Shown here: in pieces, positions 17,777 to 31,098 of the stretch
How positions within the stretch are numbered: position 1 is the first letter of the stretch
Layout of the letters: each line of letters begins with the position of its first letter
Virus record (IMG/VR): IMGVR_UViG_3300010372_000004
Location: 10,659-74,658 of that record
Length of the DNA stretch: 64,000 nucleotides
Strand: one strand, 5' to 3'
DNA from: a virus
The notes under the pieces: model-generated
Database searches by the model: none
What the model saw: only the letters and a program-made list of their open reading frames with translations
Told to the model about the DNA's origin: nothing
Position numbers and translations under genes: made by a program

Positions 17777-18176
17777 ATTTACTCCGAATACTTAACCCAT
17801 CAATGGTTGGGTTCCAGTCAATGTCTTGGACAGAATTACCTGACATTTTACAAACAACTATTTTCCCATTTAAATCTTTATAACCATTGAGGTTTTTGGA
17901 TTTCCAGATATGTTGAATGGTTAAAATTTGCTGTTTAATATCATCGAAAGTAGTATTAATATTGGTTTCATCCCAATAATTTAAAAGACTTTCCAAAGTT
18001 GGCATTACCGCCATTCTGGTTTCTGTCACAGTCCCATCTTTCTGAAATTTCAATTCGGCATAAAGACCTTGGGCTTTAGTATCACAGTCAGTTAAGACAC
18101 TGATATTTTCAATTGTTGCGATTTCTAAATTCATTATTGGCTCCAAACTAATCAAAGTCATATTCAAATTCACCAT
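17751..18176 (-). CDS. Hypothetical protein (true start probably internal)
   Basis: SD GGAG before MNLEI. Confidence 0.55.
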   Translation of the reverse strand: MVNLNMTLISLEPIMNLEIATIENISVLTDCDTKAQGLYAELKFQKDGTVTETRMAVMPTLESLLNYWDETNINTTFDDIKQQILTIQHIWKSKNLNGYKDLNGKIVVCKMSGNSVQDIDWNPTIDGLSIRSKFDEDANVS

Positions 18177-18417
18177 CTGAATTAATGAATTGCATCACAA
18201 AACTTTTCAGTTTGCTTTTCATCATTTTATTTTCAGACAGTAACTTTTGTGTGCGTTCCTGATAATATTCCATAGCTTTAGTGAACGCTTGATGTTCGGT
18301 TTCAGCTCTCATTGCCAAGTTCATGCTTTGAGCATGATCATATAACCAATAACCATCTCGGCATTTATGAAGGTTAAAAAATTCATTGCTGAGAATTTTT
18401 TCACATTTTTCAGCCAT
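18148..18417 (-). CDS. Conserved small phage protein
   Basis: 'CRDGYWLYD...MNLAMRA.TE..A...A..YYQ.R'. Confidence 0.65.
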   Translation of the reverse strand: MAEKCEKILSNEFFNLHKCRDGYWLYDHAQSMNLAMRAETEHQAFTKAMEYYQERTQKLLSENKMMKSKLKSFVMQFINSDGEFEYDFD

Positions 18418-18863
18418 TAATCAGTCCCTCCATCAATGCTAATGATATTTTCAGCATGGTAGACCCAGTCTGTATCTACCAAACCTCTTTTGTTATACAT
18501 TCCAGCTGCTTCAACACCTTTAAACTTAATCATGATGTTGTATTGTGGATGTTTAAGGTAACGCTCATGAATTGTTGAGAAGCTTTCAACAATCTTAATG
18601 TCACCATCCAAAGTCATTATTTCGGACCCAACTTTGATTCGTTTCAGAACGTCAGCACCTACTTCATATTTGTCACGGAAGTAGTCAATGGCATCTAAAT
18701 AAGATTTTTCTTCATCATTCCAACCACCGATGTTGAAAATAGCCCATAAGGTGTTCATGACATTGTTGTAGTCGTCAATAAGGTCGGCATCACCGCATTT
18801 TTCGGACACTTTTTGGTGCATGTGGTTGACAAATGATAAAAAAAGCAGGGTCTCCCTTTTCAT
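18417..18863 (-). CDS. Hypothetical protein
   Basis: TAATG coupling to the downstream gene. Confidence 0.6.
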   Translation of the reverse strand: MKRETLLFLSFVNHMHQKVSEKCGDADLIDDYNNVMNTLWAIFNIGGWNDEEKSYLDAIDYFRDKYEVGADVLKRIKVGSEIMTLDGDIKIVESFSTIHERYLKHPQYNIMIKFKGVEAAGMYNKRGLVDTDWVYHAENIISIDGGTD

Positions 18864-19206
18864 GCTCTAAAATTCTTTGTTCAAAAGTCAAAGGTTTTGC
18901 AGTTTCTTGAGGATTTTCTGCAACCCAATTTTCTGGATGAAGTACATCTTCCAAAGGTTGAGGTGGAATATTCAAAACTGCAAAATAATCAGTCATATCA
19001 TTGTTATTCAAACCATCTATGAAAGTTTGAGTTGTGTCTGTTTTGAAATATTCATCGTTTTCATTACTGGCTTCAATCTCAGCCAAAATTTTTGACCAAG
19101 GTTCGCCAGAATTTAAACGCTCTTGTAACCACTCTTGATAATCATCAATTCGCATATCTTGCTTATGGTTGTGTGCACTGCTGATTGTGATAAACACTTG
19201 TTGCAT
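18790..19206 (-). CDS. Hypothetical protein (start revised from 19251 to MQQVF, 19206)
   Basis: TAACCGA-N3-TCGGAGA motif lies 5 nt before the ATG at 19206. Confidence 0.6.
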   Translation of the reverse strand: MQQVFITISSAHNHKQDMRIDDYQEWLQERLNSGEPWSKILAEIEASNENDEYFKTDTTQTFIDGLNNNDMTDYFAVLNIPPQPLEDVLHPENWVAENPQETAKPLTFEQRILEHEKGDPAFFIICQPHAPKSVRKMR

Positions 19207-19225
19207 GATTTTCTCCGAATTTCGG

Positions 19226-19606
19226 TTAATTGTTTGAGGGATTTTTGACATAACAATTATCAGGGTTGAAACCTAAGCTTTTGTTTTTTCTGATAATTCT
19301 ACTGCCTTTGACATAGTTTTGTGAGTCACACCACTTGAAGAAATTTTCACGTTCTAACCATTCGGTGCAAATGGTGATTCCAATTTCTCCAAATTTATAG
19401 AAATCATCGTGAGTTTTGCTCAGACATTTTCTACGCATTGTTTCATAACTAGCCTTGGCTGGATGATTTGAATAGCTCTTGACACGGCTTAAATCACAGC
19501 AAGGTCTGCAAATATAAAAGCCTTTTTTACGACTCTCATATTCTGCTTGCCTACTGACAGTAAAAACCAGCTGGCAAGATTTACAAGTCAGCTGATACTT
19601 TTTCAA
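19226..19606 (-). CDS. Degenerate HNH-type homing-endonuclease-like protein with an N-terminal zinc finger
   Basis: 'M.R.C......FYKFG..GITIC.EW...F..W...Y......R......F.PDNC' follows the YGGRGI.VC.EW...IDRID...Y.P.NC family, but IDRID reads IIRKN. Confidence 0.6.
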   Translation of the reverse strand: MKKYQLTCKSCQLVFTVSRQAEYESRKKGFYICRPCCDLSRVKSYSNHPAKASYETMRRKCLSKTHDDFYKFGEIGITICTEWLERENFFKWCDSQNYVKGSRIIRKNKSLGFNPDNCYVKNPSNN

Positions 19607-19911
19607 TTTCTATACTCCCGAATTAATTTGGAGAATAAACGATTTCGCCAATGTCCTGTCGTTGGTCTTTGATCGTTATAAATCACCTGACTTAATTGAA
19701 TATAAAACTTACGTTTTGAATATCGCTTTCGCCAGCTTTTTAATAACATCAAAGTATTATGAACTTCACATTCAAGCTCTCGCTTATATTGACGGTTGGT
19801 GTTTGGAATCAATTCATGGATAGAAACTTTGACACCATCGTTGATTTTATTTGTCAACGATGGGTATTTTTTCTGAGCCAAGAATTGAAGATGTTTTTGA
19901 GTTACTTTCAT
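19603..19911 (-). CDS. Hypothetical basic protein
   Basis: SD AAGGA. Confidence 0.6.
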   Translation of the reverse strand: MKVTQKHLQFLAQKKYPSLTNKINDGVKVSIHELIPNTNRQYKRELECEVHNTLMLLKSWRKRYSKRKFYIQLSQVIYNDQRPTTGHWRNRLFSKLIREYRN

Positions 19912-19947
19912 AATCTTTCCTTAACTCATAAATTGTTATTTAATAGT

Positions 19948-20181
19948 TTACCAATTCTCTAATAAATTTAAGAAATTTGGTTTGATTGTATATTTTCGAT
20001 GGGTTTGATAACTCGCTGCACCATAACGGATAAATTCACAGTTGGTCATTTCAGAAAACATAATTGAGCTTCTTAAATCTCGCTCAATTAGCATGTTATA
20101 TAATTTCAACACTGCTTTATTTTCTTCAGTTTCACCCTCTCGTTCTATTTGAGCTTTGATTGAATCCAAGACTTTGCCCAT
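19948..20181 (-). CDS. Hypothetical protein
   Basis: SD GAGGT. Confidence 0.6.
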   Translation of the reverse strand: MGKVLDSIKAQIEREGETEENKAVLKLYNMLIERDLRSSIMFSEMTNCEFIRYGAASYQTHRKYTIKPNFLNLLENW

Positions 20182-20198
20182 AGATTTACCTCAAATTT

Positions 20199-20474
20199 TT
20201 ACAATAAATGCTGTGGAATAAAGGATAATTTACGAGTTTTCTCAAAGTATTTGAGCCAATTTTCTTTACTCATAAATATACAAGGTGATTCAAAAGTAAT
20301 ACCTGAATTAAGTCGGGTGCACTTATGAAAACCAGACTTATACTTGAATCCCATTTTTTGAACTTGACCAATCAATATGTGATGTTGCCGACCTATTAAA
20401 TACCCAATAGATCGACTGTCGGCATTTTCAAGGTCAGTAACACGAAATTGATTGGCATACGTTTTACTGACCAT
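20199..20474 (-). CDS. Hypothetical protein
   Basis: SD GAGGT. Confidence 0.6.
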   Translation of the reverse strand: MVSKTYANQFRVTDLENADSRSIGYLIGRQHHILIGQVQKMGFKYKSGFHKCTRLNSGITFESPCIFMSKENWLKYFEKTRKLSFIPQHLL

Positions 20475-20482
20475 TCGTTACC

Positions 20483-20773
20483 TCAAAAATAATAGTGATT
20501 GGTGATGTGAATACTTTGGACGAATGGACATTGTTTGACTATGTCCTTGAAACTGTTGTGGATACAATCGACGTACCCATCTGGATTACAGATTGATACT
20601 TGAATAGAAGTTTGAGATGTTTTAATCATCTCGGCTTCAGCATAGACTTCGTCAAAGTCCTTGCCATTTTTCTTGAAAATGGCTTTTAGTTTGTCAATTG
20701 GATTTCGTGAACTATCCAATTTGTCAAGATTAAGCTCAACAGCTGCTTCTAGCCATAAAGACATATTGCTCAC
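20483..20773 (-). CDS. Hypothetical protein
   Basis: SD GAGGTG. Confidence 0.6.
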   Translation of the reverse strand: MSNMSLWLEAAVELNLDKLDSSRNPIDKLKAIFKKNGKDFDEVYAEAEMIKTSQTSIQVSICNPDGYVDCIHNSFKDIVKQCPFVQSIHITNHYYF

Positions 20774-20776
20774 CTC

Positions 20777-21190
20777 TTACATCCCTTGCTTCCACTGCAT
20801 ACAAGCCATTGCTCGGAAGTATGGAATGGTCACTGGGTCAAGACACCAATGTTTGCCATTCATACCAGTTTCATGAATTTTCTTATACAAAAGTATTCCA
20901 AACATGCCTTGGTTTTGTCCAAAACACAGGCATGAACGGATTTGCTGACCTTTTTCGTTCAATTCATAAAACCCATCTTTTTCAATGACGTAATGCTCAA
21001 TGTTTAATTGTTTGAGTACATCATTAAATTCCTGAACTTCAGCATCGGTTAAGTTTCTGCCAAGGTTCGGGATAAAACCAAGGTCGAAATAGATGAAACC
21101 ATTTGTTGTTGGGTCATAAGTGTGGACAGTTCTCAAATATTGAGTCTTTGCATCTTTTACATGCAGTTGTGTCATGTTTTGATGATTCAT
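20777..21190 (-). CDS. Hypothetical protein
   Basis: SD AAGGA. Confidence 0.6.
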   Translation of the reverse strand: MNHQNMTQLHVKDAKTQYLRTVHTYDPTTNGFIYFDLGFIPNLGRNLTDAEVQEFNDVLKQLNIEHYVIEKDGFYELNEKGQQIRSCLCFGQNQGMFGILLYKKIHETGMNGKHWCLDPVTIPYFRAMACMQWKQGM

Positions 21191-21204
21191 TGCTTGGTTA
21201 TCCT

Positions 21205-21480
21205 TTACTTAATTTCGTTGATCAATGTTGGTTGATTACCTGTTCTAAACAAATGATCGAATAGCGCACTCAAAAATAAAAACAGCAAGGCATCAACAAT
21301 ACAAAAAAGAATTTTCAGCTTTGCAATTTCTAAAGTTATTTTTGACCAGTTTCTGCCGTCGAAAGCTATTTGAAAAAAGATAATAACCATGATGATGATT
21401 GCAATAAATCCAATCCCAAAAAAGAACCAAGAAACGTATTTGAAAATGATGTTTCTTGAATAGTGAAATGAACTTTTCAT
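21205..21480 (-). CDS. Small two-TM membrane protein
   Basis: Two hydrophobic helices; SD GAGGA. Confidence 0.65.
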   Translation of the reverse strand: MKSSFHYSRNIIFKYVSWFFFGIGFIAIIIMVIIFFQIAFDGRNWSKITLEIAKLKILFCIVDALLFLFLSALFDHLFRTGNQPTLINEIK

Positions 21481-21945
21481 GATTTTCCTCTGTTTTTGAA
21501 TTTACGCTTGTACGCTTGTTAGAGCGATTTTAATTTGCTGACGCTACGTTTCCCTATGTGGTGCTTAAAAGTGCGCTAAAAACGCTGTTTTTGGGCATTT
21601 TAGAGGGGGTCAGCTTGGGTTGGTGACGCAGATTTTGGTTTTTCACTCAAAAATTGGGTGTTTTGGTGGGGTGTTTTGTTGGGGTTTTTGAGTGAGTTTT
21701 CGGTGACGGTTTTGAGTCAGGTTGAGGTTCAGGTTTTGACTCGGTTATGACTCGTTTGTGGATTTTGCTACAGACACAGACGGAGTCGGGGTCTGTGGGT
21801 GTCGGCTGTGCGAATAGGTTATGGTGATGGTTTTGTCAAGGGTTTTTACACAAGTTAACGAAAAGGTTCTGTTTTTAACAAAAGATTACGTTAAGGTTGT
21901 GGTTGAGGTCTTGACTTGGATTAGGGTTTAGGCAGGGTGGTTAAA
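21481..21945. other. Non-coding G/T-skewed tract with long hairpins
   Basis: Stems GCTGAC/GTCAGC (21537-21614), TCACTCAAAAA/TTTTTGAGTGA (21643-21695), GAGTCA/TGACTC and CACAGAC/GTCTGTG; several loops are almost purely G/T. Confidence 0.6.
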
Positions 21946-22007
21946 AAATAATCAAATTACGTGAAACGGAAAGTAATCTGATTAAAAAATGAACACCTTG
22001 AAAAAGT

Positions 22008-22421
22008 CCTTTAAAAACGCAGGGTTAACTCTCTAGGAATTACGGAGATGGAGAAAAAGCCCTATTTTGGTGCGAAAAATCGTCAAATGAGACAATTTCT
22101 CATTAACAAAAAACCTTTAAAAATCGCATGGTTAACTCTCTAGGAATTAAACTGACCAAAAGTGCTTTTATATTAACTATATTTATTTACTCTATTTTTT
22201 TAAATTTTTTCATTTTTATCACACCCAAATTTTATTTTCTCAATTGTAATTCCTAGAGAGTTAACCAATGGATTTTAAAGAGAAAACTGGTAATGAGAAA
22301 ATTTCTCAATTTGCATAAATTCCGCCACTTTTTCACCAAAATGGTCCAATCTGTGACAGAATCTCTCACTGATCAATTTCCTACAGCCCTTTATCCATCA
22401 CTGGTTAACTCTCTAGGAAAT
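22008..22421. repeat. Iteron array with dyad symmetry around an AT-rich core: probable replication origin
   Basis: GGTTAACTCTCTAGGAATTA at 22023-22042 and 22130-22149, inverted at 22247-22266, variant at 22403-22421; AT-rich core 22150-22246. Repeats are certain; origin function is inferred. Confidence 0.7.
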
Positions 22422-22712
22422 AAGAAATTCTTGAACTTTTAAGTAATCTTCTGGCTTAAATCCATTTTTCCACTCAAAATTCCAACCTTGTCCAGTTTTT
22501 TCGATCAACAAACCATAAGATTTTACTTGACTTCCACCACGTATTCTGTATGCAGTCCCAACTCGGACTCTGTCAAGGTTTTTAACACTGTCATCGAACT
22601 TGATGTAAACGGCGTTAAAACCACGTGGAACCCAACAAACTGTGTCTGGAACAGGGAAAATTGACGCTATTTTTGGCGAATTTAATTTGTTTTTTACGTT
22701 TTGAATATCCAT
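22413..22712 (-). CDS. Hypothetical protein adjacent to the putative origin
   Basis: SD AAGGA; its stop codon lies inside the fourth iteron. Confidence 0.65.
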   Translation of the reverse strand: MDIQNVKNKLNSPKIASIFPVPDTVCWVPRGFNAVYIKFDDSVKNLDRVRVGTAYRIRGGSQVKSYGLLIEKTGQGWNFEWKNGFKPEDYLKVQEFLIS

Positions 22713-22751
22713 TTTGGTATCCTTTATGTGATAACTTTTGTCACAGATGCA

Positions 22752-22786
22752 TAAAAAGAAAGGGCTAAGTCATTGATTTAGCCCTT
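22752..22786 (-). terminator. Intrinsic terminator (overlaps an IHF consensus)
   Basis: AAGGGCTAA/TTAGCCCTT plus T-run; AATCAATGACTTA matches WATCAANNNNTTR. Confidence 0.65.
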
Positions 22787-22811
22787 GTAAATGATGTGTT
22801 TCAGACAATTT

Positions 22812-23258
22812 TTATTTTGTCAAATTTGTAGTAACTTTCACGTAATCTTGATCAGAAATTGAGCGTTTTAAAGCCTTAAATTGAGCCTTAATCCATGCCA
22901 ATTGTTCCAGTCGAAGATCAGTTAAAGTTACAGCCGATTGCCAAGAATAGACCTTATTTTCGAGATACCATTCTTTAGCTTCAGTTAACAATCCAATCTT
23001 TTGGTCGATTGATTTAATCCAAAATTTGAAATCTGTAAAGTTAGAAACTGCTTTTAATACCGAACAATAAGTCACAATATGAGTTAAAACCCAAGCGATT
23101 TGGTTCGATTTTTTATGAGCTTCATAATTGAATGGCTGCTTATATGCTTCAAAAGCAACACGATTTTGCACAGAAGTATCTGTGATAAAAGTATTTGATA
23201 AAACACGGACAGCATCAAAGCGCAGAATTTCAGGGAACTCTATATGAATTTCTTTCAT
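22812..23258 (-). CDS. Hypothetical protein
   Basis: 148-aa ORF. Confidence 0.6.
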   Translation of the reverse strand: MKEIHIEFPEILRFDAVRVLSNTFITDTSVQNRVAFEAYKQPFNYEAHKKSNQIAWVLTHIVTYCSVLKAVSNFTDFKFWIKSIDQKIGLLTEAKEWYLENKVYSWQSAVTLTDLRLEQLAWIKAQFKALKRSISDQDYVKVTTNLTK

Positions 23259-23356
23259 GATTTTGACTCACTATATTGATTTCAATTTTGAATTTAACAA
23301 AATTTGCCGATTAAGGCAGTTTTTACCACGAATGAACGCCTATTACACGGCGCATA

Positions 23357-23447
23357 AATATAAGCAAAAACAAAGACTTACATCTTTGTTTTTGCTTATA
23401 TTCAACTATTTAGGCTCAGTCCTAGCCCAAGCTTGGGCTTGGGCTAG
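23357..23447. repeat. Palindrome cluster
   Basis: Perfect 20-bp stem 23357-23376/23383-23402; CTAGCCCAAGC-ttgg-GCTTGGGCTAG at 23422-23447, which has an alternative 16-bp palindrome register. Confidence 0.85.
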
Positions 23448-23466
23448 ATTTTTGCTTTTGACATTT

Positions 23467-24066
23467 TTACGCAACTTTTTGAAGGTTATCTTGAGAAAGC
23501 TCATTTAAGCGACCTTGCAAAACTTGCATCATTAAAAGCACTTGGCTTTCATCCAAAGTATTTAATGTGCTAGTCAATTCTGACAAGTCGATTTTTTTAG
23601 CTTCTACACTTGGCACACTTGTATCATGTGCACCTGTCATGAAGCTAATCACTTTTAAAAGTTGTTTAGCTTGAGTATGTGCTACATAAGCATTTTTGAT
23701 TTCTTTTAAAATGCTCATATCTTGAAAAGCTTTGATAGTCATAATTTTATCAAGGCTTTCAGCTTGGCTAGTTTTAATAACTTCACCTTTTAAGTGAATA
23801 TTGATCATAGCTCTAAGCTCATGATATGAATCAGTATTGCATACTTTAGCAAGTGATTTTTCGCTAAGGTTAAAAACATTTTCAAAATGTGACAAAGGCA
23901 TAGTCTTTGCCCATGTTGGCAACTCGTTGCCTTTCATCATGGCTTTAGCAATTGTTAGTAAAACGCTAGCATTTTTACCTACATTAACAAGATTAGATAA
24001 AACGCTAATTTTTTCGTTTGTCACTGTTGCGTTATATGTAACAGCTTGATTTTGCTTGTTTAACAT
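23467..24066 (-). CDS. Lone immediate-early protein at the predicted first-ejected genome end
   Basis: 199 aa, SD AAGGA; oligonucleotide usage differs from neighbours; function unknown. Confidence 0.65.
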   Translation of the reverse strand: MLNKQNQAVTYNATVTNEKISVLSNLVNVGKNASVLLTIAKAMMKGNELPTWAKTMPLSHFENVFNLSEKSLAKVCNTDSYHELRAMINIHLKGEVIKTSQAESLDKIMTIKAFQDMSILKEIKNAYVAHTQAKQLLKVISFMTGAHDTSVPSVEAKKIDLSELTSTLNTLDESQVLLMMQVLQGRLNELSQDNLQKVA

Positions 24067-24091
24067 GGCTTTATTCCTTAATAGGTTAGGT

Positions 24092-24561
24092 TAGGACTTA
24101 GGCAAGATCAAAAAGCTAGTCGAATTATCGTACTAGCTTAAATATAGATAATGTCTAAGTCCTAGTTTTTGGATTAGATTAGATTAGAAAACAGTCATCA
24201 ATTCAGCTTGTCTATTTCGTTAGACATACGGCAAAATATAGGTACTATGTGACAAACAGAATTATCACTATGATCTATATTTTTTTTGCATCACTATTTT
24301 AAAATCCTATACCTGAATGCAGTTTTAGCCACATATTCAGATTTTAAAACACTGTTAAATAGTCGCCGATTAGCCTTGCATAAGTGATTGTTAAAGTCTA
24401 CTTATGCCCTAATCTGAAAATATGCCTCATCGGTCACATTTCAAAAGGGTGCAACAGTCCTTGTCATAATCAGAAATTCTGGTTAAGACTGTGTCTTTTA
24501 TATAGCCTACAAGCTAGGCTTGTGACTATATGAAAGGCAATAAGACTGTATATGTTCCCTT
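24092..24561. ncRNA. ~470-nt highly structured non-coding element (ncRNA, 5' leader or DNA secondary structure)
   Basis: Five consecutive stem-loops plus a multi-branch domain (coordinates in findings); no ORF of 60 aa or more in the track. Confidence 0.55.
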
Positions 24562-24580
24562 GTTTACTTGGTATGAGTGC

Positions 24581-24608
24581 ATTATATCCCATCAAAAACC
24601 TGTTACAA
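24581..24608 (-). promoter_or_regulatory. Sigma70-type early promoter
   Basis: TTGTAA-16 nt-TATAAT with an AT-rich upstream tract, firing into the structured element. Confidence 0.65.
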
Positions 24609-24639
24609 CATTTATCACAAAATAATTTAAAATATTTTA

Positions 24640-24652
24640 TAAGTTGTTGATT
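24640..24652 (-). promoter_or_regulatory. IHF consensus site
   Basis: AATCAACAACTTA = WATCAANNNNTTR. Confidence 0.5.
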
Positions 24653-24677
24653 TATATAGAGTTATTTTTTAAGGGTA

Positions 24678-24856
24678 GGGAGCTTTTTTACTACACATAA
24701 GCTGGGGGAGGGTCACTGTGTCCAGAACCTCGCTATAAAAAATTTTAGGGTCTAGGTCTGTGACAACATCTGTAACAAGGTCTAGGTCTGTGACAAGGTC
24801 AAGGTCAAGGTCAAGCTCTGTAACATAGACCATAAAAGGTCAAGGTCTGTGACTAT
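24678..24856 (+). other. Candidate cos / packaging site with terminase-binding-like repeats
   Basis: G-rich GGGGGAGGGTC (24704-24714), then ACCTCGCTATAAAAAATTTT, then repeats GGTCTAGGTCTGTGACAA x2, TCTGT(G/A)AC x5 and (AAGGTC)n; TerL is GpA-type. Confidence 0.5.
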
Positions 24857-24925
24857 ACCTTTACCTACTTCATCAATTAAAATATAATCTTTTTTTCAAC
24901 AACTAATTGCCAAAAAGGAAATCTC

Positions 24926-25135
24926 ATGATTAAGGTATTGTCGAAAGGTACTCCACCAGAACAAATCATTTACCAAAGCACGTGTTCAAACTGTAGATCA
25001 GAACTAGAATTTAACAAGTCAGACACTCATGCAAGCACAGATAGAAATGAAACAGTTTATTCTTTGACTTGTCCTGTATGTAAAAAACTTATGTATCTTT
25101 CCTCAGAATTTTTTAGACAAGCAATAAAAAGATAA
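24926..25135 (+). CDS. Small zinc-ribbon protein
   Basis: CSNC...CPVC; SD AAGGA; TATAAT at about 24883-24888. Confidence 0.7.
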   Translation: MIKVLSKGTPPEQIIYQSTCSNCRSELEFNKSDTHASTDRNETVYSLTCPVCKKLMYLSSEFFRQAIKR

Positions 25136-25145
25136 ACTAAAAACA

Positions 25146-25165
25146 AAGCCCCAGAACTGGGGCTT
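25146..25165. terminator. Hairpin between convergent genes
   Basis: AAGCCCCAG-aa-CTGGGGCTT. Confidence 0.7.
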
Positions 25166-25188
25166 CATCAAAAGCTAGATCAAAAACA

Positions 25189-25521
25189 TCAATCAGACTG
25201 ATACACAATCGTTGACAAAATCCCTGCCTGTCTCAACATCTCAGATAGCTGCCGACAGAACTCAGTGTTACGTTCAGCCTGACCATTTTGTTCTAATAAC
25301 CAAAACTGATTGTTAATACCTTTACCTGTTCGACGTTCCATTCGCAAACCTTGTTCAGTGAACTTAGTCACATCATTGGTCGTTAAAAAAGTAAGGGCGA
25401 TCATATCATTGTTAACATAACCTTTATCTTCTATTACATCTGTAATCGCATGAGCACGAACCAGACAAGAATTAATAATTTTTGCAAACTCTGCATAATC
25501 AAAAGGGTTGTATTTGAACAT
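25189..25521 (-). CDS. Hypothetical protein
   Basis: SD AGGA. Confidence 0.65.
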   Translation of the reverse strand: MFKYNPFDYAEFAKIINSCLVRAHAITDVIEDKGYVNNDMIALTFLTTNDVTKFTEQGLRMERRTGKGINNQFWLLEQNGQAERNTEFCRQLSEMLRQAGILSTIVYQSD

Positions 25522-25558
25522 GGTGTTTTCCTATTTATTTACCTATTTAGCTTAATGA

Positions 25559-25753
25559 TTAAGGTTTAAAAATTTGCATGACAGTTAGAATGGAACCCAT
25601 AAGAGTTGCACCCAGAGCCATACCCCATCCGAAAAACCACCAATTATTAGAATCTGGTTTTTTCATTTTATTCATAGACTTCTCCACAATTTGCTTATAC
25701 GTCTGAGTATAAGCTTGTTTATTTGGTTGAAAGTTTGGATTATTAAAATGCAT
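25559..25753 (-). CDS. Small protein with a C-terminal TM helix
   Basis: WWFFGWGMALGATLMGSILTVM. Confidence 0.5.
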   Translation of the reverse strand: MHFNNPNFQPNKQAYTQTYKQIVEKSMNKMKKPDSNNWWFFGWGMALGATLMGSILTVMQIFKP

Positions 25754-25765
25754 AATTTTAAATTC

Positions 25766-28441
25766 TCACATCTTTAAAGCATTCTTTACACGAATACCGC
25801 TGTACCACTGGTTAATATCATTTTCTTTAGAAAAACGACGAATACCACGTGACTTAATTACTTCATCCAACATCGAACGAAATTCTTGCATTTCCACATT
25901 TCTACGGCTACCAATACCAAGACGTAAAAATTGACGGAACTGTAAATGTAAATCCATTTCTGTGCATTCAAAAATCTCATGTTTAGCAGCTTCATTTTTT
26001 AAAACCGCCTTGGATTGAATCTCAATACTTGGGTCTTTCTCTAAAAAATACACCGCTGGATTTGTCTGGAACGCCAACGTAGCCATTAACCGCTTATGGG
26101 ACTTGCATAAAGTGTAACCTTTATTTTTTACAAGTCTTGGACCAGCTTCTAAAGCCCAAGCAAAAATGGCTTCACGTTCTTGGGAAATGATTTTTTTCGC
26201 AAGATCAACATCCACATTTTCAATAGGCACTTGCTGGTCAAAATGGAAAAATAACCAACGACGAGTGAAACCTTCAGAGGTGTCCATTGTTTTCGGCAAA
26301 TGGTTTGATGCAGCCCAGTGTGCACATGTTGGTCTCATCATGAATGATTCACGATAAAGTTGGTACACAGAAGTTGGCGACCCATCAATCATTGATTTGA
26401 ACACATCACCTTCAATACGTTTACGTTCAGAAAGTTCTCCGACAATATTAATATTTTTACGATGTAAGCTTACGAGTAAACGGTTTTCACTCATTTTGTC
26501 AAAACTGATAGAAGCCTTGGCATCATCTGGGAAAAGGGAGCCAATAATTTCAAGCAAAACAGATTTACCTGTACGAGCTAAACCGAACAGTAAAAAAGCA
26601 CGTTGGTATTTTGTGGCACGACCCATGAAGCTTACATACAAAGCTTCTTGCAGCGCATTTCTCATATCCTGATAATCAGAATGATGACCCCAGCTTTCAT
26701 ATAAGAATTTATCAAACAAAGGCATTTTTCCTGCCACTTCAGGATTGTAACGATATGGTAAAACATACGTTGCACCATACGCTTTTTGGTGTGTTGTAAA
26801 ACTGAGTGGTGATTTCATTGATTCTAAAAATCTTTCCACAGCATTATTTTGTGCTGATTGAATATCTTCTGCAGACCACATACCCATCTGAGCATTTGGG
26901 TGTGCCAATATCTGATCTTTGATTCGTTGAATCTCAATATCAATAGCTGGGTCATCACGTGACATTTTGGCTGATTGATTTTCAAGAATCATACCATTCG
27001 CCACATTGACATAAGCAGTATCCGATTTATTCAATTCAGATTCACATAAAATCAAAAGCTGTTTATAAACACCATCCACATCTGAATTTCGCTTCATAAT
27101 ATCCAAAGCGGTAAAGTTCATGGCGATATATTGTTTAACCTGTTCAGCTGGATAATGTACCCAATGTGAACCCATAAATTTATATACAGCACCAGAATCC
27201 ACACAGATTGGATGCAGTGTTGAAAGTTGATCTTTCACCGCCATAGCAACTTCTGTGTGAGTATTCAAATTCAGTTCTGTTGCACCTTTACCATCATCAT
27301 CACCACCAATAGCTGTTGTGGTTTTTAAAGCTTCACGTGTTTGCTTAATTTTTGCCTTCAGATCAGCAGCACGAATTTGTAAGCCTGATTTACTGACAAT
27401 TTTATTGATTACGAATGTTTCACGAACCTGATCATGTTTTTTAATCTGAGCCATTTTCAATAACATTTCGTCAACTAAATCAAGAGCTTTTTCTTCTTTA
27501 GTGTTGTCAGCTTCTTCATTGTAATAACTGAGAATTTGATCATACGACCATTCAGCTTCAAGATCATCAAGACCAAAAGCTTTGACCTGTTCTTTGGATA
27601 AGTCTTCATCCCAACCATTTGGCAGAGCAACCTTACGCTTATGCAAAGTTTGACGAATGAATTTCACCAAGTTACGGACATGCTTATCCATATCCATCGG
27701 GTCGCCTTCGACCTGTTCAGTGAATCCGTCATTAATTGCATAAAGCATCTCTACAGCTTGTTTCATAGAAATACGACCTTCCACAACTTCGTGTGCAAGG
27801 AGACCATTTTTCTGTGTGATTGAACTATCACGAAACCCAGCTGGTACATATTCAACAAGCGAACCCATACCCTTACGACTAAGGTTGATTCCTTCCAGTT
27901 CAATAAGGTTACGCAGCTTATCTTCAAGATCATCTGGAATCATCACCAACTGATCAAGAACATCATAAAGATTTGAATTTGACGTATAAGGTTTTTTAGT
28001 TTCTGGATGAATTGAAGGAGGTAATACCACCTGTTGACCAGTACATAAATATTCCACCAAAGTACCGTACTCAGGTGAAATTAATTTAAATGCTTTAGGA
28101 ACTTTTGGGTTGAATTTAAATGCCAACACCATCCCTTTTTTACCCACACGTTTCCATGTGTCGTAACCTTTAGGAAGTATTGAAAGTATTTTTTCAATTA
28201 AACGCTCGTCGGCATAGTCAATATCAAGAACACCGATTTGAGATTGTTTACCTAAAACCAAACCAATATTGTGGTTCGCTGGAAGTTGCAACCACTGTTG
28301 TTGAATTTCAGTCGGAACAGCATGGTCGGCAAAGTCTGACCAAGCATTCATTAAAGGGATTTTTGACTGCTCTTTCAAAGGAATAACAGACATACCTTTT
28401 GCATAATAGTGAGGTGCATGTTCACGAAAAATATTAGTCAT
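25766..28441 (-). CDS. Prim-Pol primase fused to a D5/P4-family SF3 helicase
   Basis: N-terminal 'VIPL...KIP', 'NIGLVLG', 'LDID', 'VVLPPSIHPET'; C-terminal Walker A GLARTGKS, 'ASNHLP', 'GFTRRW'. Confidence 0.92.
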   Translation of the reverse strand: MTNIFREHAPHYYAKGMSVIPLKEQSKIPLMNAWSDFADHAVPTEIQQQWLQLPANHNIGLVLGKQSQIGVLDIDYADERLIEKILSILPKGYDTWKRVGKKGMVLAFKFNPKVPKAFKLISPEYGTLVEYLCTGQQVVLPPSIHPETKKPYTSNSNLYDVLDQLVMIPDDLEDKLRNLIELEGINLSRKGMGSLVEYVPAGFRDSSITQKNGLLAHEVVEGRISMKQAVEMLYAINDGFTEQVEGDPMDMDKHVRNLVKFIRQTLHKRKVALPNGWDEDLSKEQVKAFGLDDLEAEWSYDQILSYYNEEADNTKEEKALDLVDEMLLKMAQIKKHDQVRETFVINKIVSKSGLQIRAADLKAKIKQTREALKTTTAIGGDDDGKGATELNLNTHTEVAMAVKDQLSTLHPICVDSGAVYKFMGSHWVHYPAEQVKQYIAMNFTALDIMKRNSDVDGVYKQLLILCESELNKSDTAYVNVANGMILENQSAKMSRDDPAIDIEIQRIKDQILAHPNAQMGMWSAEDIQSAQNNAVERFLESMKSPLSFTTHQKAYGATYVLPYRYNPEVAGKMPLFDKFLYESWGHHSDYQDMRNALQEALYVSFMGRATKYQRAFLLFGLARTGKSVLLEIIGSLFPDDAKASISFDKMSENRLLVSLHRKNINIVGELSERKRIEGDVFKSMIDGSPTSVYQLYRESFMMRPTCAHWAASNHLPKTMDTSEGFTRRWLFFHFDQQVPIENVDVDLAKKIISQEREAIFAWALEAGPRLVKNKGYTLCKSHKRLMATLAFQTNPAVYFLEKDPSIEIQSKAVLKNEAAKHEIFECTEMDLHLQFRQFLRLGIGSRRNVEMQEFRSMLDEVIKSRGIRRFSKENDINQWYSGIRVKNALKM

Positions 28442-28446
28442 CAGGG

Positions 28447-29028
28447 TTAGTCCAAATCATTTAATAGGTTAAGGTATCGGTCTGCAATTCTTTCAAGATC
28501 AGGATATTTCTTAATTTCTTGGAAAAAGCGACGAGTGACTGATTCAATTTTTTGAGCTTTGGCAATATTTGTAAGCTGCAGAAGTATTTCCATTTCCTGT
28601 TGTTGGAAGTCTAAGAATTTAGACATTGCTGACATTTTTACGGAATCTGTACTACCATTCGTTGCCATACGCTCCATACTACGAACGATTTTTTCTAAGC
28701 GTACTAGGATTCCATAATTATCACGATACTCTGAACTACGTTTTTCAATATCAGCATTTAAATCAGCAAATTGTTTTTCAATTTCTGCATTTTCTTTACT
28801 GTTATCAACAGAGGTATTGTCAGGACTTGCTGCAGCTTCAAATTTTCCTGAAATAACACCATTGCGGAATTTATCAGTTACCTCATTAATTTTTGAAATC
28901 ATTAAAGAGCTATAGGGTGCTTCCTTTAAATAATTGTTATCACTTAAACAACCTAAAATTAAGGTGGCTGCAGCATCTAAAGCTTCTTGTGTGATTTTTG
29001 GATGTTTATCTGACATAATCTTTCCCAT
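28447..29028 (-). CDS. Possible terminase small subunit (divergent from TerL)
   Basis: Helical/coiled-coil protein next to TerL; no other TerS candidate in the window; positional inference only. Confidence 0.35.
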   Translation of the reverse strand: MGKIMSDKHPKITQEALDAAATLILGCLSDNNYLKEAPYSSLMISKINEVTDKFRNGVISGKFEAAASPDNTSVDNSKENAEIEKQFADLNADIEKRSSEYRDNYGILVRLEKIVRSMERMATNGSTDSVKMSAMSKFLDFQQQEMEILLQLTNIAKAQKIESVTRRFFQEIKKYPDLERIADRYLNLLNDLD

Positions 29029-29036
29029 AATGTTTT

Positions 29037-29096
29037 GACCTCAACAGCGAGTAGTAACTAATATTCGCTGTAGAGGTCTGAATAGGGTTTATTATA
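29037..29096 (-). promoter_or_regulatory. -10 box plus RBS-occluding leader hairpin
   Basis: TATAAT at 29096-29091; stem GACCTC-T-ACAGCGA/TCGCTGT-T-GAGGTC with the GAGG SD in the 3' arm. Confidence 0.5.
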
Positions 29097-29304
29097 GGTA
29101 AAAGATTTAGTCGAACAACAGGGTAAAATGAATTAGAAACGGTTATAACGATTAACAGTAAAAATCATAAGAAAAAATAGAAAAATAAATTAAATAAAAA
29201 CAAAGGCTTACTAATAGTTATTTAAAAAACCGATTAAAAAATTGTGTAACTCTCTACGAAATGAATTTTCAACTTATTTTAAAAACCCAAATTTGTCATA
29301 AAAC

Positions 29305-31098
29305 ATGTGTTTTATGTATAATCAATCCAGTCTCAATTGGAACATCAACATGGAAAAAGGTAGCTTCAAAGAACGAATGGCATCCTATGTAAAGGAGTTG
29401 GTAAACCCAATGTCCTATTACGATTGGGTGAACCAAAACACAACTATTCAGGGTATGCCTTTTACGTGTGATCGTTATCCATTTCAGAAACAAATTTTGA
29501 ATGATATGTCACAGGAATTACACTGCATCAAACCATCACAAATTGGTTTGACAGAGATTCAATTGCGTAAAGCTTTAGCCTATGTCGCACGAAATCCCCA
29601 TCGAAATTTGATTTATACAATGCCCGATGAAAACATGCGTAAACGTGTTTATCAAAACCGTATGCTTCCAATTTTGACTCAGGACACGGTCTTTCACAGT
29701 CTAAATTCTGCAGGGAAAAAACCAATTCGTTCAATTGAGATTACTGAAATCAATAATTCTCAAATGTTGATGTTTCCAGCAAATGAGAAATCAGCAACAT
29801 CTCAGCCAGCAGATGTTGTTTTTAACGATGAGGTGGATTTATCCGACCCTCAAATTATTGCCTTGTTCAACTCACGTTTACAGGGTTCCGATGTAAAAAT
29901 TAATCATAACTATTCGACACCAACATACGCTGGTATCGGTATTGATGCTTTATATCAAACATCGGACCAACATGAGTATATGTTCCAGTGTCCACACTGT
30001 AACTTTTATCAGTTGCCAGAATTTACGACTAAGTTTATTCGTATTCCAAATTTACCAATGGAAGCCAACGATGATTTAAGTAAATTTGAACCTCAGTGGA
30101 TTGATAAATATAAAATTAACCCTTTGGATGCTTATTCAGTTTGTTATAAGTGTGGAAAGAAAGTAACTTATGGTGACGATGAGAATCATCAATGGGTTTC
30201 TAAATACCCACATCGTACTACAAGCCGTGGTTATAAAATCAGCCCTTTCTCTACTCGAAACTTAGATGCAGCATACGTCTTAACCACGCTTTTGAAATAT
30301 ATCCGTGGTGACAATATGAAAGGTTTCTATAACACAGTATTGGGTTTAACTCATGAAAACTCAGATGAGCGTTTACCTGAAGGTTTGTTGAGAAATTTAT
30401 TCACACCAAATTTTGACCCTATTTACGATGGTTATGGAACTGTACCCCACTTCATCGGCATCGACATGGGTAAAGTTTGTCACGTGTCGATTGGTATGGC
30501 TGATTCTTTGACAAAAATTAAAACTGTGCTTTTAGAAACAGTGAAAGCAGAAGAATTGCCAGCGAGAATTACTTCTTACATGAAACAATTCCCTATCAAG
30601 GGAGGTTTTATTGACAGATTACCGCTAATTACTGACTCAGATAAAGTACGTGTAATGACAGATAATGTGATTATGCCTATTCAATATGAGCAAAACAGCG
30701 GTGGTGCAATGCTTGTTCCAAAAAATGACGAGTATGGTACTTTGAGTTATGTCGGAGCACACCGAACCATGCACTTGGATACCTTAGTTTCAGCAATAAA
30801 AAATGGTTGGATTGAATTTTCAGGGTATGGTAGTCAAAAAGAAACAATCATTAGTCATTTACGAGCAATGGTTCGTATGTTAGCTGAATCTAAAGAAGGT
30901 ACAGAGAAGGTTCCTGTCTGGATTAAGAAAGATAAAAATGACCACTATTTCCATTCATTAGGTTATTTGAATCAAGCGGTACATCAATACTATAATGGCT
31001 ATAGCTTTTTACCCGATCAAAGTTATAATTCAACCATATATTTGGGTGGTATGGATAATTTTATAACACCATCACAATCACTATTCGGACGAAATTGA
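29305..31098 (+). CDS. terL: Terminase large subunit, lambda GpA-like (start possibly 29350)
   Basis: 'YPFQ', Walker A variant KPSQIGLTE, Walker B DEVD, coupling motif STPT, CPHC/CYKC zinc motifs, nuclease GIDMG and DHYFH. Confidence 0.92.
   Translation: MCFMYNQSSLNWNINMEKGSFKERMASYVKELVNPMSYYDWVNQNTTIQGMPFTCDRYPFQKQILNDMSQELHCIKPSQIGLTEIQLRKALAYVARNPHRNLIYTMPDENMRKRVYQNRMLPILTQDTVFHSLNSAGKKPIRSIEITEINNSQMLMFPANEKSATSQPADVVFNDEVDLSDPQIIALFNSRLQGSDVKINHNYSTPTYAGIGIDALYQTSDQHEYMFQCPHCNFYQLPEFTTKFIRIPNLPMEANDDLSKFEPQWIDKYKINPLDAYSVCYKCGKKVTYGDDENHQWVSKYPHRTTSRGYKISPFSTRNLDAAYVLTTLLKYIRGDNMKGFYNTVLGLTHENSDERLPEGLLRNLFTPNFDPIYDGYGTVPHFIGIDMGKVCHVSIGMADSLTKIKTVLLETVKAEELPARITSYMKQFPIKGGFIDRLPLITDSDKVRVMTDNVIMPIQYEQNSGGAMLVPKNDEYGTLSYVGAHRTMHLDTLVSAIKNGWIEFSGYGSQKETIISHLRAMVRMLAESKEGTEKVPVWIKKDKNDHYFHSLGYLNQAVHQYYNGYSFLPDQSYNSTIYLGGMDNFITPSQSLFGRN

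Follow-up and report, generated by a model that had tools for sequence, protein, structure and literature searches.

The window analysed here, a 64,000-nt stretch of viral DNA, comprises bases 10659-74658 of its source, a 74.6-kb IMG/VR record (IMGVR_UViG_3300010372_000004). It carries genes for a terminase, a portal protein and a prim-pol/D5-type primase-helicase, as well as a 2044-aa open reading frame (ORF) of tape-measure size. The primase is 65% identical to those of the Acinetobacter siphophages EAb13, fJoAci01, fJoAci04, Mystique and TCUP2199 and 71-81% identical to those of three further IMG/VR contigs (L011, L012 and L013). The window comes from an uncultured relative of the five cultured phages. 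On its minus strand, within a predicted direct terminal repeat (DTR), lies the element described in this study, an ORF-free and densely folded stretch of about 510 nt between a sigma-70 promoter and the first gene of the repeat (Table 1). The whole region is present once in the 74.6-kb record.

The promoter reads toward the element, with a predicted transcription start at about 24574-24578, at the start of CATACCAAG and about 140 bp from the predicted left end of the genome. Between the promoter and the first gene, no ORF of at least 30 aa was found on the transcribed strand. The unit thus runs in the order promoter, leader of about 510 nt, 199-aa gene and two terminator-like hairpins, and the gene after it comes with a separate promoter-like site and a canonical terminator. 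Based on the promoter, the position in the repeat and the ORF-free stretch, we therefore read the element as the leader of a one-gene transcription unit. The −35 and −10 boxes and the first ~10 transcribed bases are kept even between phages with no detectable sequence similarity in the rest of the leader, and the promoter is conserved together with the repeat edge in EAb13, fJoAci01, fJoAci04, Mystique, L011, L012 and L013. The predicted product of the first gene shares 37% identity with its counterpart from the first DTR gene of EAb13 (34-37% across the 195-aa ORFs of the EAb13 and fJoAci repeats) and has 42 metagenomic homologues. No match to it was found in Pfam, PHROG, NCBIfam or the ESM Atlas, and the AlphaFold2 model, with a predicted local distance difference test score (pLDDT) of 49, was unusable.

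The direct terminal repeats of EAb13 are 2,177 bp long, as determined with PhageTerm (PMC10508131), and the records of fJoAci04 and fJoAci01 carry a DTR annotation of the same type. All three repeats open with ~530-580 gene-free nucleotides followed by a 195-aa ORF. When reverse-complemented, window positions 24560-24760 align to the first 190 nt of the EAb13 and fJoAci repeats, and repeat position 1 falls at window position 24716; the right-hand junction of EAb13 also aligns at ~24716. The cut-site context ...GGACACA|GTGACCC... is conserved, also in L011, L012 and L013, and the first repeat base at the left edge is the minus-strand G of GTGACCC. Inward from 24716 follow the box AAAAAGCNCCCNACCCTT, an AT-rich tract, the −35/−10 pair and the first transcribed bases CATACCAAG, in the same order as in L011-L013. 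The box may have a role in terminase or end recognition. The repeat edges of EAb13, fJoAci04 and fJoAci01 thus agree with the first-pass annotation of this DNA, which had placed a genome end next to the element. The left edge lies 110-135 bp upstream of the promoter, and the leader itself sits 110-650 bp from the predicted left DNA end, within the repeat. By analogy with T7 and T5, this end would be the first to enter the cell.

At the other side of the repeat, the EAb13 alignment falls within a conserved mirror-symmetric site. In a contig from sequencing run X5, an Illumina adapter stands directly before 22168, within 2 nt of the aligned EAb13 end, and the X5 contig depths of 14.4 and 21.4 are consistent with a doubled repeat. 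With edges at 22168 and 24716, the terminal repeat would therefore be ~2.55 kb long. Its right edge is predicted from the adapter junction together with homology, its left edge from homology.

To assess the folding of the element, the 542-nt region 24067-24608 was compared with dinucleotide-shuffled sequences. The minus strand reached −147.3 kcal/mol against −109.0 ± 6.2 kcal/mol for the shuffles (z −6.2), and the plus strand −157.0 kcal/mol (z −8.1), so that an excess was seen on both strands. In a sliding scan of 18000-31000 (13 kb; 200-nt windows, both strands), every scan window in 24001-24600 had a z-score between −2.5 and −6.3 on one strand or both. This was the longest continuous structured stretch of the scanned region, in which most coding windows remained within ±2. 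From 24501-24700 onward the score was about 0, indicating that the excess stops abruptly at the promoter. The first-pass annotation had described a non-coding, densely paired stretch downstream of a promoter, a description borne out by the z-scores, the ORF list and the alignments, and its stems proved complementary on re-reading. These are 24092-104/24152-164, 24113-120/24132-139, 24209-214/24221-226, 24233-241/24275-283, 24297-306/24340-349, 24368-373/24409-414, 24378-385/24400-407, 24445-449/24557-561 and 24454-459/24544-549, as well as 24467-474/24478-485 with one G:T pair and 24493-505/24526-538 with two. The repeat analysis also found TAAGACTGT twice, at 24484 and 24541. The two alternative pairings that this repetition had seemed to allow are not conserved, and a riboswitch-like switch between them was rejected because L011 and L012 lack the second copy.

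The element did not match any Rfam family. A search of the whole window against Rfam at gathering thresholds gave no matches, and a permissive search of 23900-24950 (E up to 5) gave best scores of 13.8-26.5 bits against thresholds of 50-80. None of the curated families, including ROOL, GOLLD, the group I intron, riboswitches, transfer RNA (tRNA) and transfer-messenger RNA (tmRNA), reached its gathering threshold, and ARAGORN predicted no tRNA or tmRNA. Searching the window with the seven modules of the element by blastn-short returned only the modules themselves and chance matches of 10-16 nt. A dispersed palindromic repeat, such as a mobile element resembling a miniature inverted-repeat transposable element (MITE), was rejected since the modules have no other copies. 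By blastn, the region had no match among 50,697 phage records. Scans of IMG/VR with the first gene and two DNA motifs, and a scan of genome contigs, found no further leaders. We found no published description of the leader; our literature searches turned up only genome announcements for the relatives.

Table 1. Predicted features of the terminal-repeat region, in window coordinates, from the left DNA end inward.
Feature	Position	Strand	Basis
Predicted left physical DNA end (left DTR edge)	24702..24730, cut ~24716	(-)	homology to PhageTerm-annotated DTRs
Conserved box AAAAAGCNCCCNACCCTT, just within the repeat edge	24671..24688	(-)	near-invariant in window, EAb13, fJoAci04, L011, L012
AT-rich tract after the box	24609-24670	(-)	alignment
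Sigma-70 promoter, TTGTAA-16-TATAAT, 10/12	24581..24608	(-)	best sigma-70 match in 23300-25300
Domain I, 5' three-way junction	24445..24561	(-)	same topology in independent minimum free energy folds of window, L011, L012
Hairpin II	24415..24443	(-)	kept in L005, L006 with three double-sided changes (helix 2)
Hairpin III, 14-nt loop AGACUU(U/A)AACAAUC	24368..24414	(-)	L005/L006 comparison
Hairpin IV, optional module	24292..24354	(-)	window and L005, four double-sided changes (helix 6)
Hairpin V, stem flanked by A-tract/U-tract	24233..24283	(-)	L005/L006 counterpart keeps pairing (helices 7-8)
Hairpin VI, GUCUA/UAGAC	24209..24226	(-)	sequence and fold
Unpaired G-free spacer, (CUAAUC)3 repeat	24165..24195	(-)	sequence and fold
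Hairpin VII, long nested hairpin ~25 nt upstream of start codon	24092..24164	(-)	inverted repeat; compensatory changes
Translation start region, mini-hairpin CCU-AUUA-AGG over Shine-Dalgarno AAGGA	24067..24091	(-)	sequence
First gene of terminal repeat, 199-aa all-helical protein	23467..24066	(-)	homologues
Two terminator-like hairpins closing the one-gene unit	23364..23447	(-)	z −5.8 to −7.1
Predicted right repeat edge (right DNA end)	22160..22175, ~22168-22170	(.)	EAb13 position 2177 aligns at ~22170

The leader was compared with several sets of sequences, in alignments of 3-5 sequences per clade. Three short metagenome contigs (L004, L005 and L006) contain the first gene and part of the leader; the first protein of L004 is 89% identical to that of the window and those of L005 and L006 are 54-56% identical. 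The loci L011-L013 were reached through the primase search, and five cultured phages were compared, among them EAb13 (L003), fJoAci01 (L008), Mystique (L009) and TCUP2199 (L010). Ten further loci found by their primases (30-36% identical) were set aside as too distant; the ORF lists for two of these were uninformative due to their high-GC genomes. Sequencing runs X4, X5 and X16, the last a polyA metatranscriptome, were examined as contigs.

In the alignment of the window with L005 and L006, 93.1% of the cells at the 88 predicted pairs form standard pairs, compared with 33-43% when the partners are slid by 1-3 columns. Twenty-six pairs were changed on both sides, as opposed to 1-4 in the slid controls and 9.7 ± 2.5 in the shuffled ones. 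We consider these figures supportive, not conclusive, because they stem from two lineages and the structure was predicted from the same alignment. The pairing of the leader thus appears to be kept through compensatory change in the few related lineages compared, over short evolutionary distances only.

Domain I starts about 15 nt after the transcription start (+15 to +130); GGG/CCC forms its closing helix and ACAGUC/GACUGU a further helix, and of its two arms Ia is long (~20 bp) and Ib short (~10 bp). Its junction strands (ACAGUC ... GGACUG ... CACCC) are conserved in the window, L011 and L012, and the sequences of arm Ia (17-20 bp) and of arm Ib (7-10 bp) are unrelated among the three. A covariance model of the domain (R1) matches only its three source sequences and found no match in L013, in the EAb13 clade (L003 and L007-L010) or in the ten distant relatives. 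The loop of hairpin III is identical in L005 and L006 bar one base, while its stem changes from AUAAGU/ACUUAU to UUAAGU/ACUUAA. Hairpin VII is kept in L004, L005 and L006 via multiple compensatory changes, such as CUUAGAC/GCCUAAG versus UUAGAUC/GAUCUAG (helices 11-12), and its 12-bp outer stem is retained in L004 through several coordinated changes. A CCU-N3-4-AGG mini-hairpin over the Shine-Dalgarno sequence of the first gene recurs in L011 (8350-8375), L012 (10790-10810) and L005. Hairpin V was also considered as an intrinsic terminator and rejected, since its U-tract is not conserved in L005 and L006 and the terminator scan found no minus-strand terminator within the leader.

Other parts of the leader vary between strains. 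Hairpin IV is absent from L006, and in X4 and X16 contigs 11 nt stand in its place. The spacer between hairpins VI and VII at 24165-24195, (GATTAG)3 on the plus strand, has a strain-variable copy number, X5 having an extra GATTA after 24171. An additional perfect GC-rich hairpin of 11-14 bp (GGCAUUGCCCAC...GUGGGCAAUGCC) was seen in three of the five cultured phages, fJoAci01 (L008:480-530), Mystique and TCUP2199. The hairpins hence behave as modules, with hairpin IV and the GC-rich hairpin being optional among strains or clade members. We also observed that the contigs L005 (1-12) and L006 (88-100) have starts no more than 2 nt apart, at the 3' edge of Domain I, corresponding to about window position 24457. 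The two contigs are independent and of low coverage, and in L006 a Nextera adapter precedes this point. The shared start could be due to chance, to a DNA end in that clade or, if the samples are complementary DNA, to an RNA 5' end.

The leaders of the EAb13 type resemble that of the window in their general plan. They have a sigma-70 promoter ~110-150 nt inside the left DTR edge that faces the first DTR gene, a repeat of 2.2-2.5 kb, an ORF-free and hairpin-dense leader of 0.4-0.7 kb and a homologous first gene of 195-221 aa. They also share the folding excess and the compensatory base-pair changes. The equivalent ORF-free leaders of the relatives are 380-694 nt long and reach sense-strand z-scores of −6.6 in EAb13, −5.1 in L011, −5.3 in L012 and −3.1 in L013. 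However, the five cultured phages have a leader structure of their own, in which 10 of 124 pairs are doubly changed. The domain order differs from that of the window, only the promoter and the first ~10 transcribed bases can be aligned, and there is no blastn similarity. These comparisons place the leader of the window in a structural lineage of its own within one kind of element. The Mystique (L009:527-1112) and EAb13 (L003:36-487) records annotate ORFs of 25-48 codons on the opposite strand within the equivalent leader; because of the conserved promoter and the hairpin structure, these are probably spurious and their annotation would need correction.

Which strand folds was judged from several features. 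In structures predicted with Watson-Crick pairs only, the counts of G:U versus A:C were 9/9, 16/18 and 10/13, and in the window alone 3 versus 4 (1x1 mismatches); RNAalifold energies were equal on both strands. The wobble statistics are symmetric and therefore do not decide between the strands. The first-pass annotation had called the folding strand ambiguous while counting more wobbles for the plus strand. The ambiguity is reflected in our unbiased counts; the plus-strand preference does not generalise, as the sense strand, i.e. the minus strand of the window, has the better z-score in four of five phages (EAb13, L011, L012 and L013), the window being the exception. The only conserved promoter also drives the sense strand. 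An RNA-library contig of X16 covers 24136-24544, which is only a weak hint; since the X16 data are contigs only and cover other non-coding parts too, we make no claim of expression from them. A sense RNA is favoured because of the z-scores in four of five phages, the sole conserved promoter, the structure starting at the promoter, and hairpins unlike protein-binding dyads. Taking all RNA mechanisms together, we consider a sense RNA quite probable.

Among such mechanisms, we favour a cis-acting untranslated 5' leader of the first transcription unit in the ~2.55-kb terminal repeat, with a probability of about 0.5. Host RNA polymerase would start at the 24608-24581 promoter, ~140 bp from the predicted left end, and would proceed leftward through eight hairpin domains and the 199-aa gene, stopping at the terminator-like hairpins at 23447-23364. 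The dense folding would shield the long untranslated RNA from Rho-dependent termination and RNase E, and the paired 5' end and the three-way junction of Domain I could make the transcript more stable. Translation of the first protein may be gated by hairpin VII and the mini-hairpin over the Shine-Dalgarno sequence. As the hairpins are exchangeable modules, selection would largely be for being folded, Domain I and the loop of hairpin III being the exceptions that appear to keep specific sequence. Several points weigh against this reading. The X16 contigs, which also lie over other non-coding parts of the stretch, could represent DNA carryover into an RNA library. Neither the wobble counts nor the RNAalifold energies carry a strand signal, and in the window itself the antisense z-score is the better one (−8.1 versus −6.2). 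The covariation comes from few lineages (3-5 sequences per alignment), with structures predicted from the same alignments, and the protective and gating mechanism is one that we infer.

The leader, or pieces cut from it, could instead be a stable trans-acting non-coding RNA (ncRNA), the first abundant phage product, that binds or titrates a host factor and with which the first gene merely shares a promoter. Such a factor might be Hfq, ProQ, a nuclease or a defence or sensor protein that binds RNA. The fast evolution and the turnover of hairpin modules would be expected of an arms race; conserved sequence is found in the single-stranded loop of hairpin III and the junction strands of Domain I, and abundant early ncRNAs of 525-570 nt are known from Kayvirus phages (PMC7698491). 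The summed contig depth of X16 is also ~4 over 23917-24720 compared with ~1 over the first gene, and the starts of both L005 and L006 lie no further than 2 nt from the 3' edge of Domain I. However, the X16 depths come from low-coverage contigs and are unable to rank expression, and the L006 start is a Tn5 adapter junction in a ~1x contig. Moreover, no terminator or conserved processing site was found between leader and gene, and nothing points to a target, so that a trans-acting RNA, while possible, seems doubtful to us. In a bolder version, the leader is a first weapon, an abundant and fast-evolving RNA, possibly cut after Domain I, with which the phage decoys or blocks a host defence that binds RNA or senses nucleic acids, at a time when no phage protein has yet been made. 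This would explain why hairpins are swapped and reshaped between close relatives, but we find it unlikely. Domain I, lying ~15 nt after the start and being the most conserved RNA element, could also serve as a factor-independent antiterminator like put of HK022, modifying its own polymerase to read through the terminators of the repeat into the early genes; terminator-like hairpins do follow the first and second genes. Yet the domain is absent from L013 and the EAb13 clade despite the same gene layout, the next gene has its own promoter-like site, no Rfam model matches, and a three-way junction is not the pair of adjacent stem-loops that make up put. An antiterminator is thus very unlikely.

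The palindromes could also act as DNA, as hairpins, cruciforms or protein-binding dyads in repeat duplication, packaging, end protection or ejection. The element is located inside the terminal repeat, 110-650 bp away from the predicted DNA end, and both strands fold equally well with strand-symmetric wobbles. The terminal repeat of T5 contains repeat-rich untranslated tracts, and the end processing of T7 involves a hairpin intermediate. On the other hand, the hairpins of the element are all different, with long loops, bulges and a multi-branch domain, unlike repeated binding sites, and the recognisable repeated motifs lie outside it, at 24740-24867 and 22008-22421. Phage DNA enters the cell double-stranded, and a process by which selection would maintain eight extruded hairpins, each of them different, is not known to us. 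Natural strains can do without one of the hairpins, and the structured stretch starts at the promoter rather than at the DNA end. All this makes a DNA structure improbable. A functional fold on the plus strand, giving an RNA antisense to the leader, would agree with the lower energy and better z-score (−8.1) of that strand in the window and with the two G:U pairs that hairpin Ia has on the plus strand only. However, the sense strand scores better in EAb13, L011, L012 and L013, no convincing or conserved plus-strand promoter leads into the element (the sole candidate, at 24221-24248, matches 9/12), and on the left-end copy the RNA would run off the DNA end. We consider an antisense RNA highly improbable. 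The first-pass annotation had offered a leader made first in infection, an antisense RNA and a DNA structure used in ejection side by side; the undescribed early leader is the best of these readings, whereas nothing specific supports the other two.

The leader is a real and conserved element, and structured early phage leaders and ncRNAs are a kind already known. Its closest published analogues are the early leader of T7 and the early ncRNAs of Kayvirus. For T7, Dunn and Studier reportedly described in 1983 the early promoters A1-A3 leading to gene 0.3, with the RNase III site R0.3. In T7, host-polymerase promoters lie a few hundred bp from the left end, which enters first, and an untranslated leader of several hundred nucleotides has a long processing hairpin before the first gene. 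The window likewise has a promoter near a predicted DNA end, followed by a long untranslated leader, and hairpin VII (24092-24164) is, by this analogy, a candidate RNase III substrate. The T7 leader differs in that its promoters are three in tandem, its RNase III site is a single defined one and it lies outside the 160-bp terminal repeat, whereas that of the window has one promoter and about eight hairpins and lies inside a 2.5-kb repeat. T5, for which Wang et al. reportedly described in 2005 untranslated repeat regions with an injection stop signal in the terminal repeat, shares a gene-free tract rich in repeats and palindromes within a long siphovirus terminal repeat. In T5, however, the tract occupies the inner end of the repeat and probably acts as DNA; the counterpart of that position in the window is 21481-22412.

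In Kayvirus, lncRNA1 and lncRNA2 of Staphylococcus phage vB_SauM-515A1 are ORF-free, 525-570 nt long and very abundant early, their function being unknown, and lncRNA2 has a typical early promoter (PMC7698491). They differ from the window leader in lying beside tRNA genes rather than at a genome end before a protein gene, and the sequences are unrelated. Their expression has been demonstrated, while that of the window leader is predicted. With HK022 put the window leader shares the position of a structured phage RNA just downstream of an early promoter, but not the topology. ROOL and GOLLD (Rfam RF03087 and RF01998) are likewise structured RNAs encoded by phages, though no Rfam model matches the window leader. 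Their cores are conserved across a wide phylogenetic distance, whereas the window leader loses recognisable structure between sister clades.

If the leader is indeed such an RNA, a group of Acinetobacter siphophages that includes the therapy candidates EAb13 and Mystique would begin infection with a half-kilobase folded RNA from the terminal repeat, which precedes and is physically joined to the message of a conserved protein of unknown function. Experiments could start from the defined promoter and the predicted start, from hairpin modules that can be separated and from the naturally occurring variant without hairpin IV. The element raises the questions of how pre-early expression is controlled in DTR siphoviruses besides T5, and whether long phage leaders serve RNA protection only or have a function of their own.

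Some further observations concern the surroundings of the repeat edges. Just outside the predicted left edge, at 24740-24867, an array of GGTCTA/GGTCAA units is interleaved with TCTGTGAC. A similar array, with CTAGACC runs and GTGAC runs, is present in L012 and at the EAb13 junction, and the copy number varies, with 48 nt (24768-24817) missing from X5. The units probably act as protein-binding sites at the edge of the repeat, and a candidate cos site at 24640-24856 is better read as the edge of the terminal repeat.

At the right edge, the mirror-symmetric site at 22008-22421 has an AT-rich core between inverted copies of ATTCCTAGAGAGTTAACC. EAb13 and the fJoAci phages have an equivalent site, also symmetric, to which it aligns, with the annotated right DTR end within the core, and it reads better as a right-end cut site than as a replication origin. 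One X5 contig ends at 22047 and another starts at 22168, each joined to an Illumina adapter, and the 120 nt between them are uncovered. The junction at 22047 is oriented the other way; possible causes are a nick site, a difference between strains or a second cut. Finally, downstream of the repeat edge and before the early genes, the minus strand at 21500-21960 contains a C-rich, almost G-free untranslated tract of ~450 nt, in which the folding excess is confined to the minus strand (z −4.2 to −5.0) and which looks like a leader of the Rho-utilisation type.

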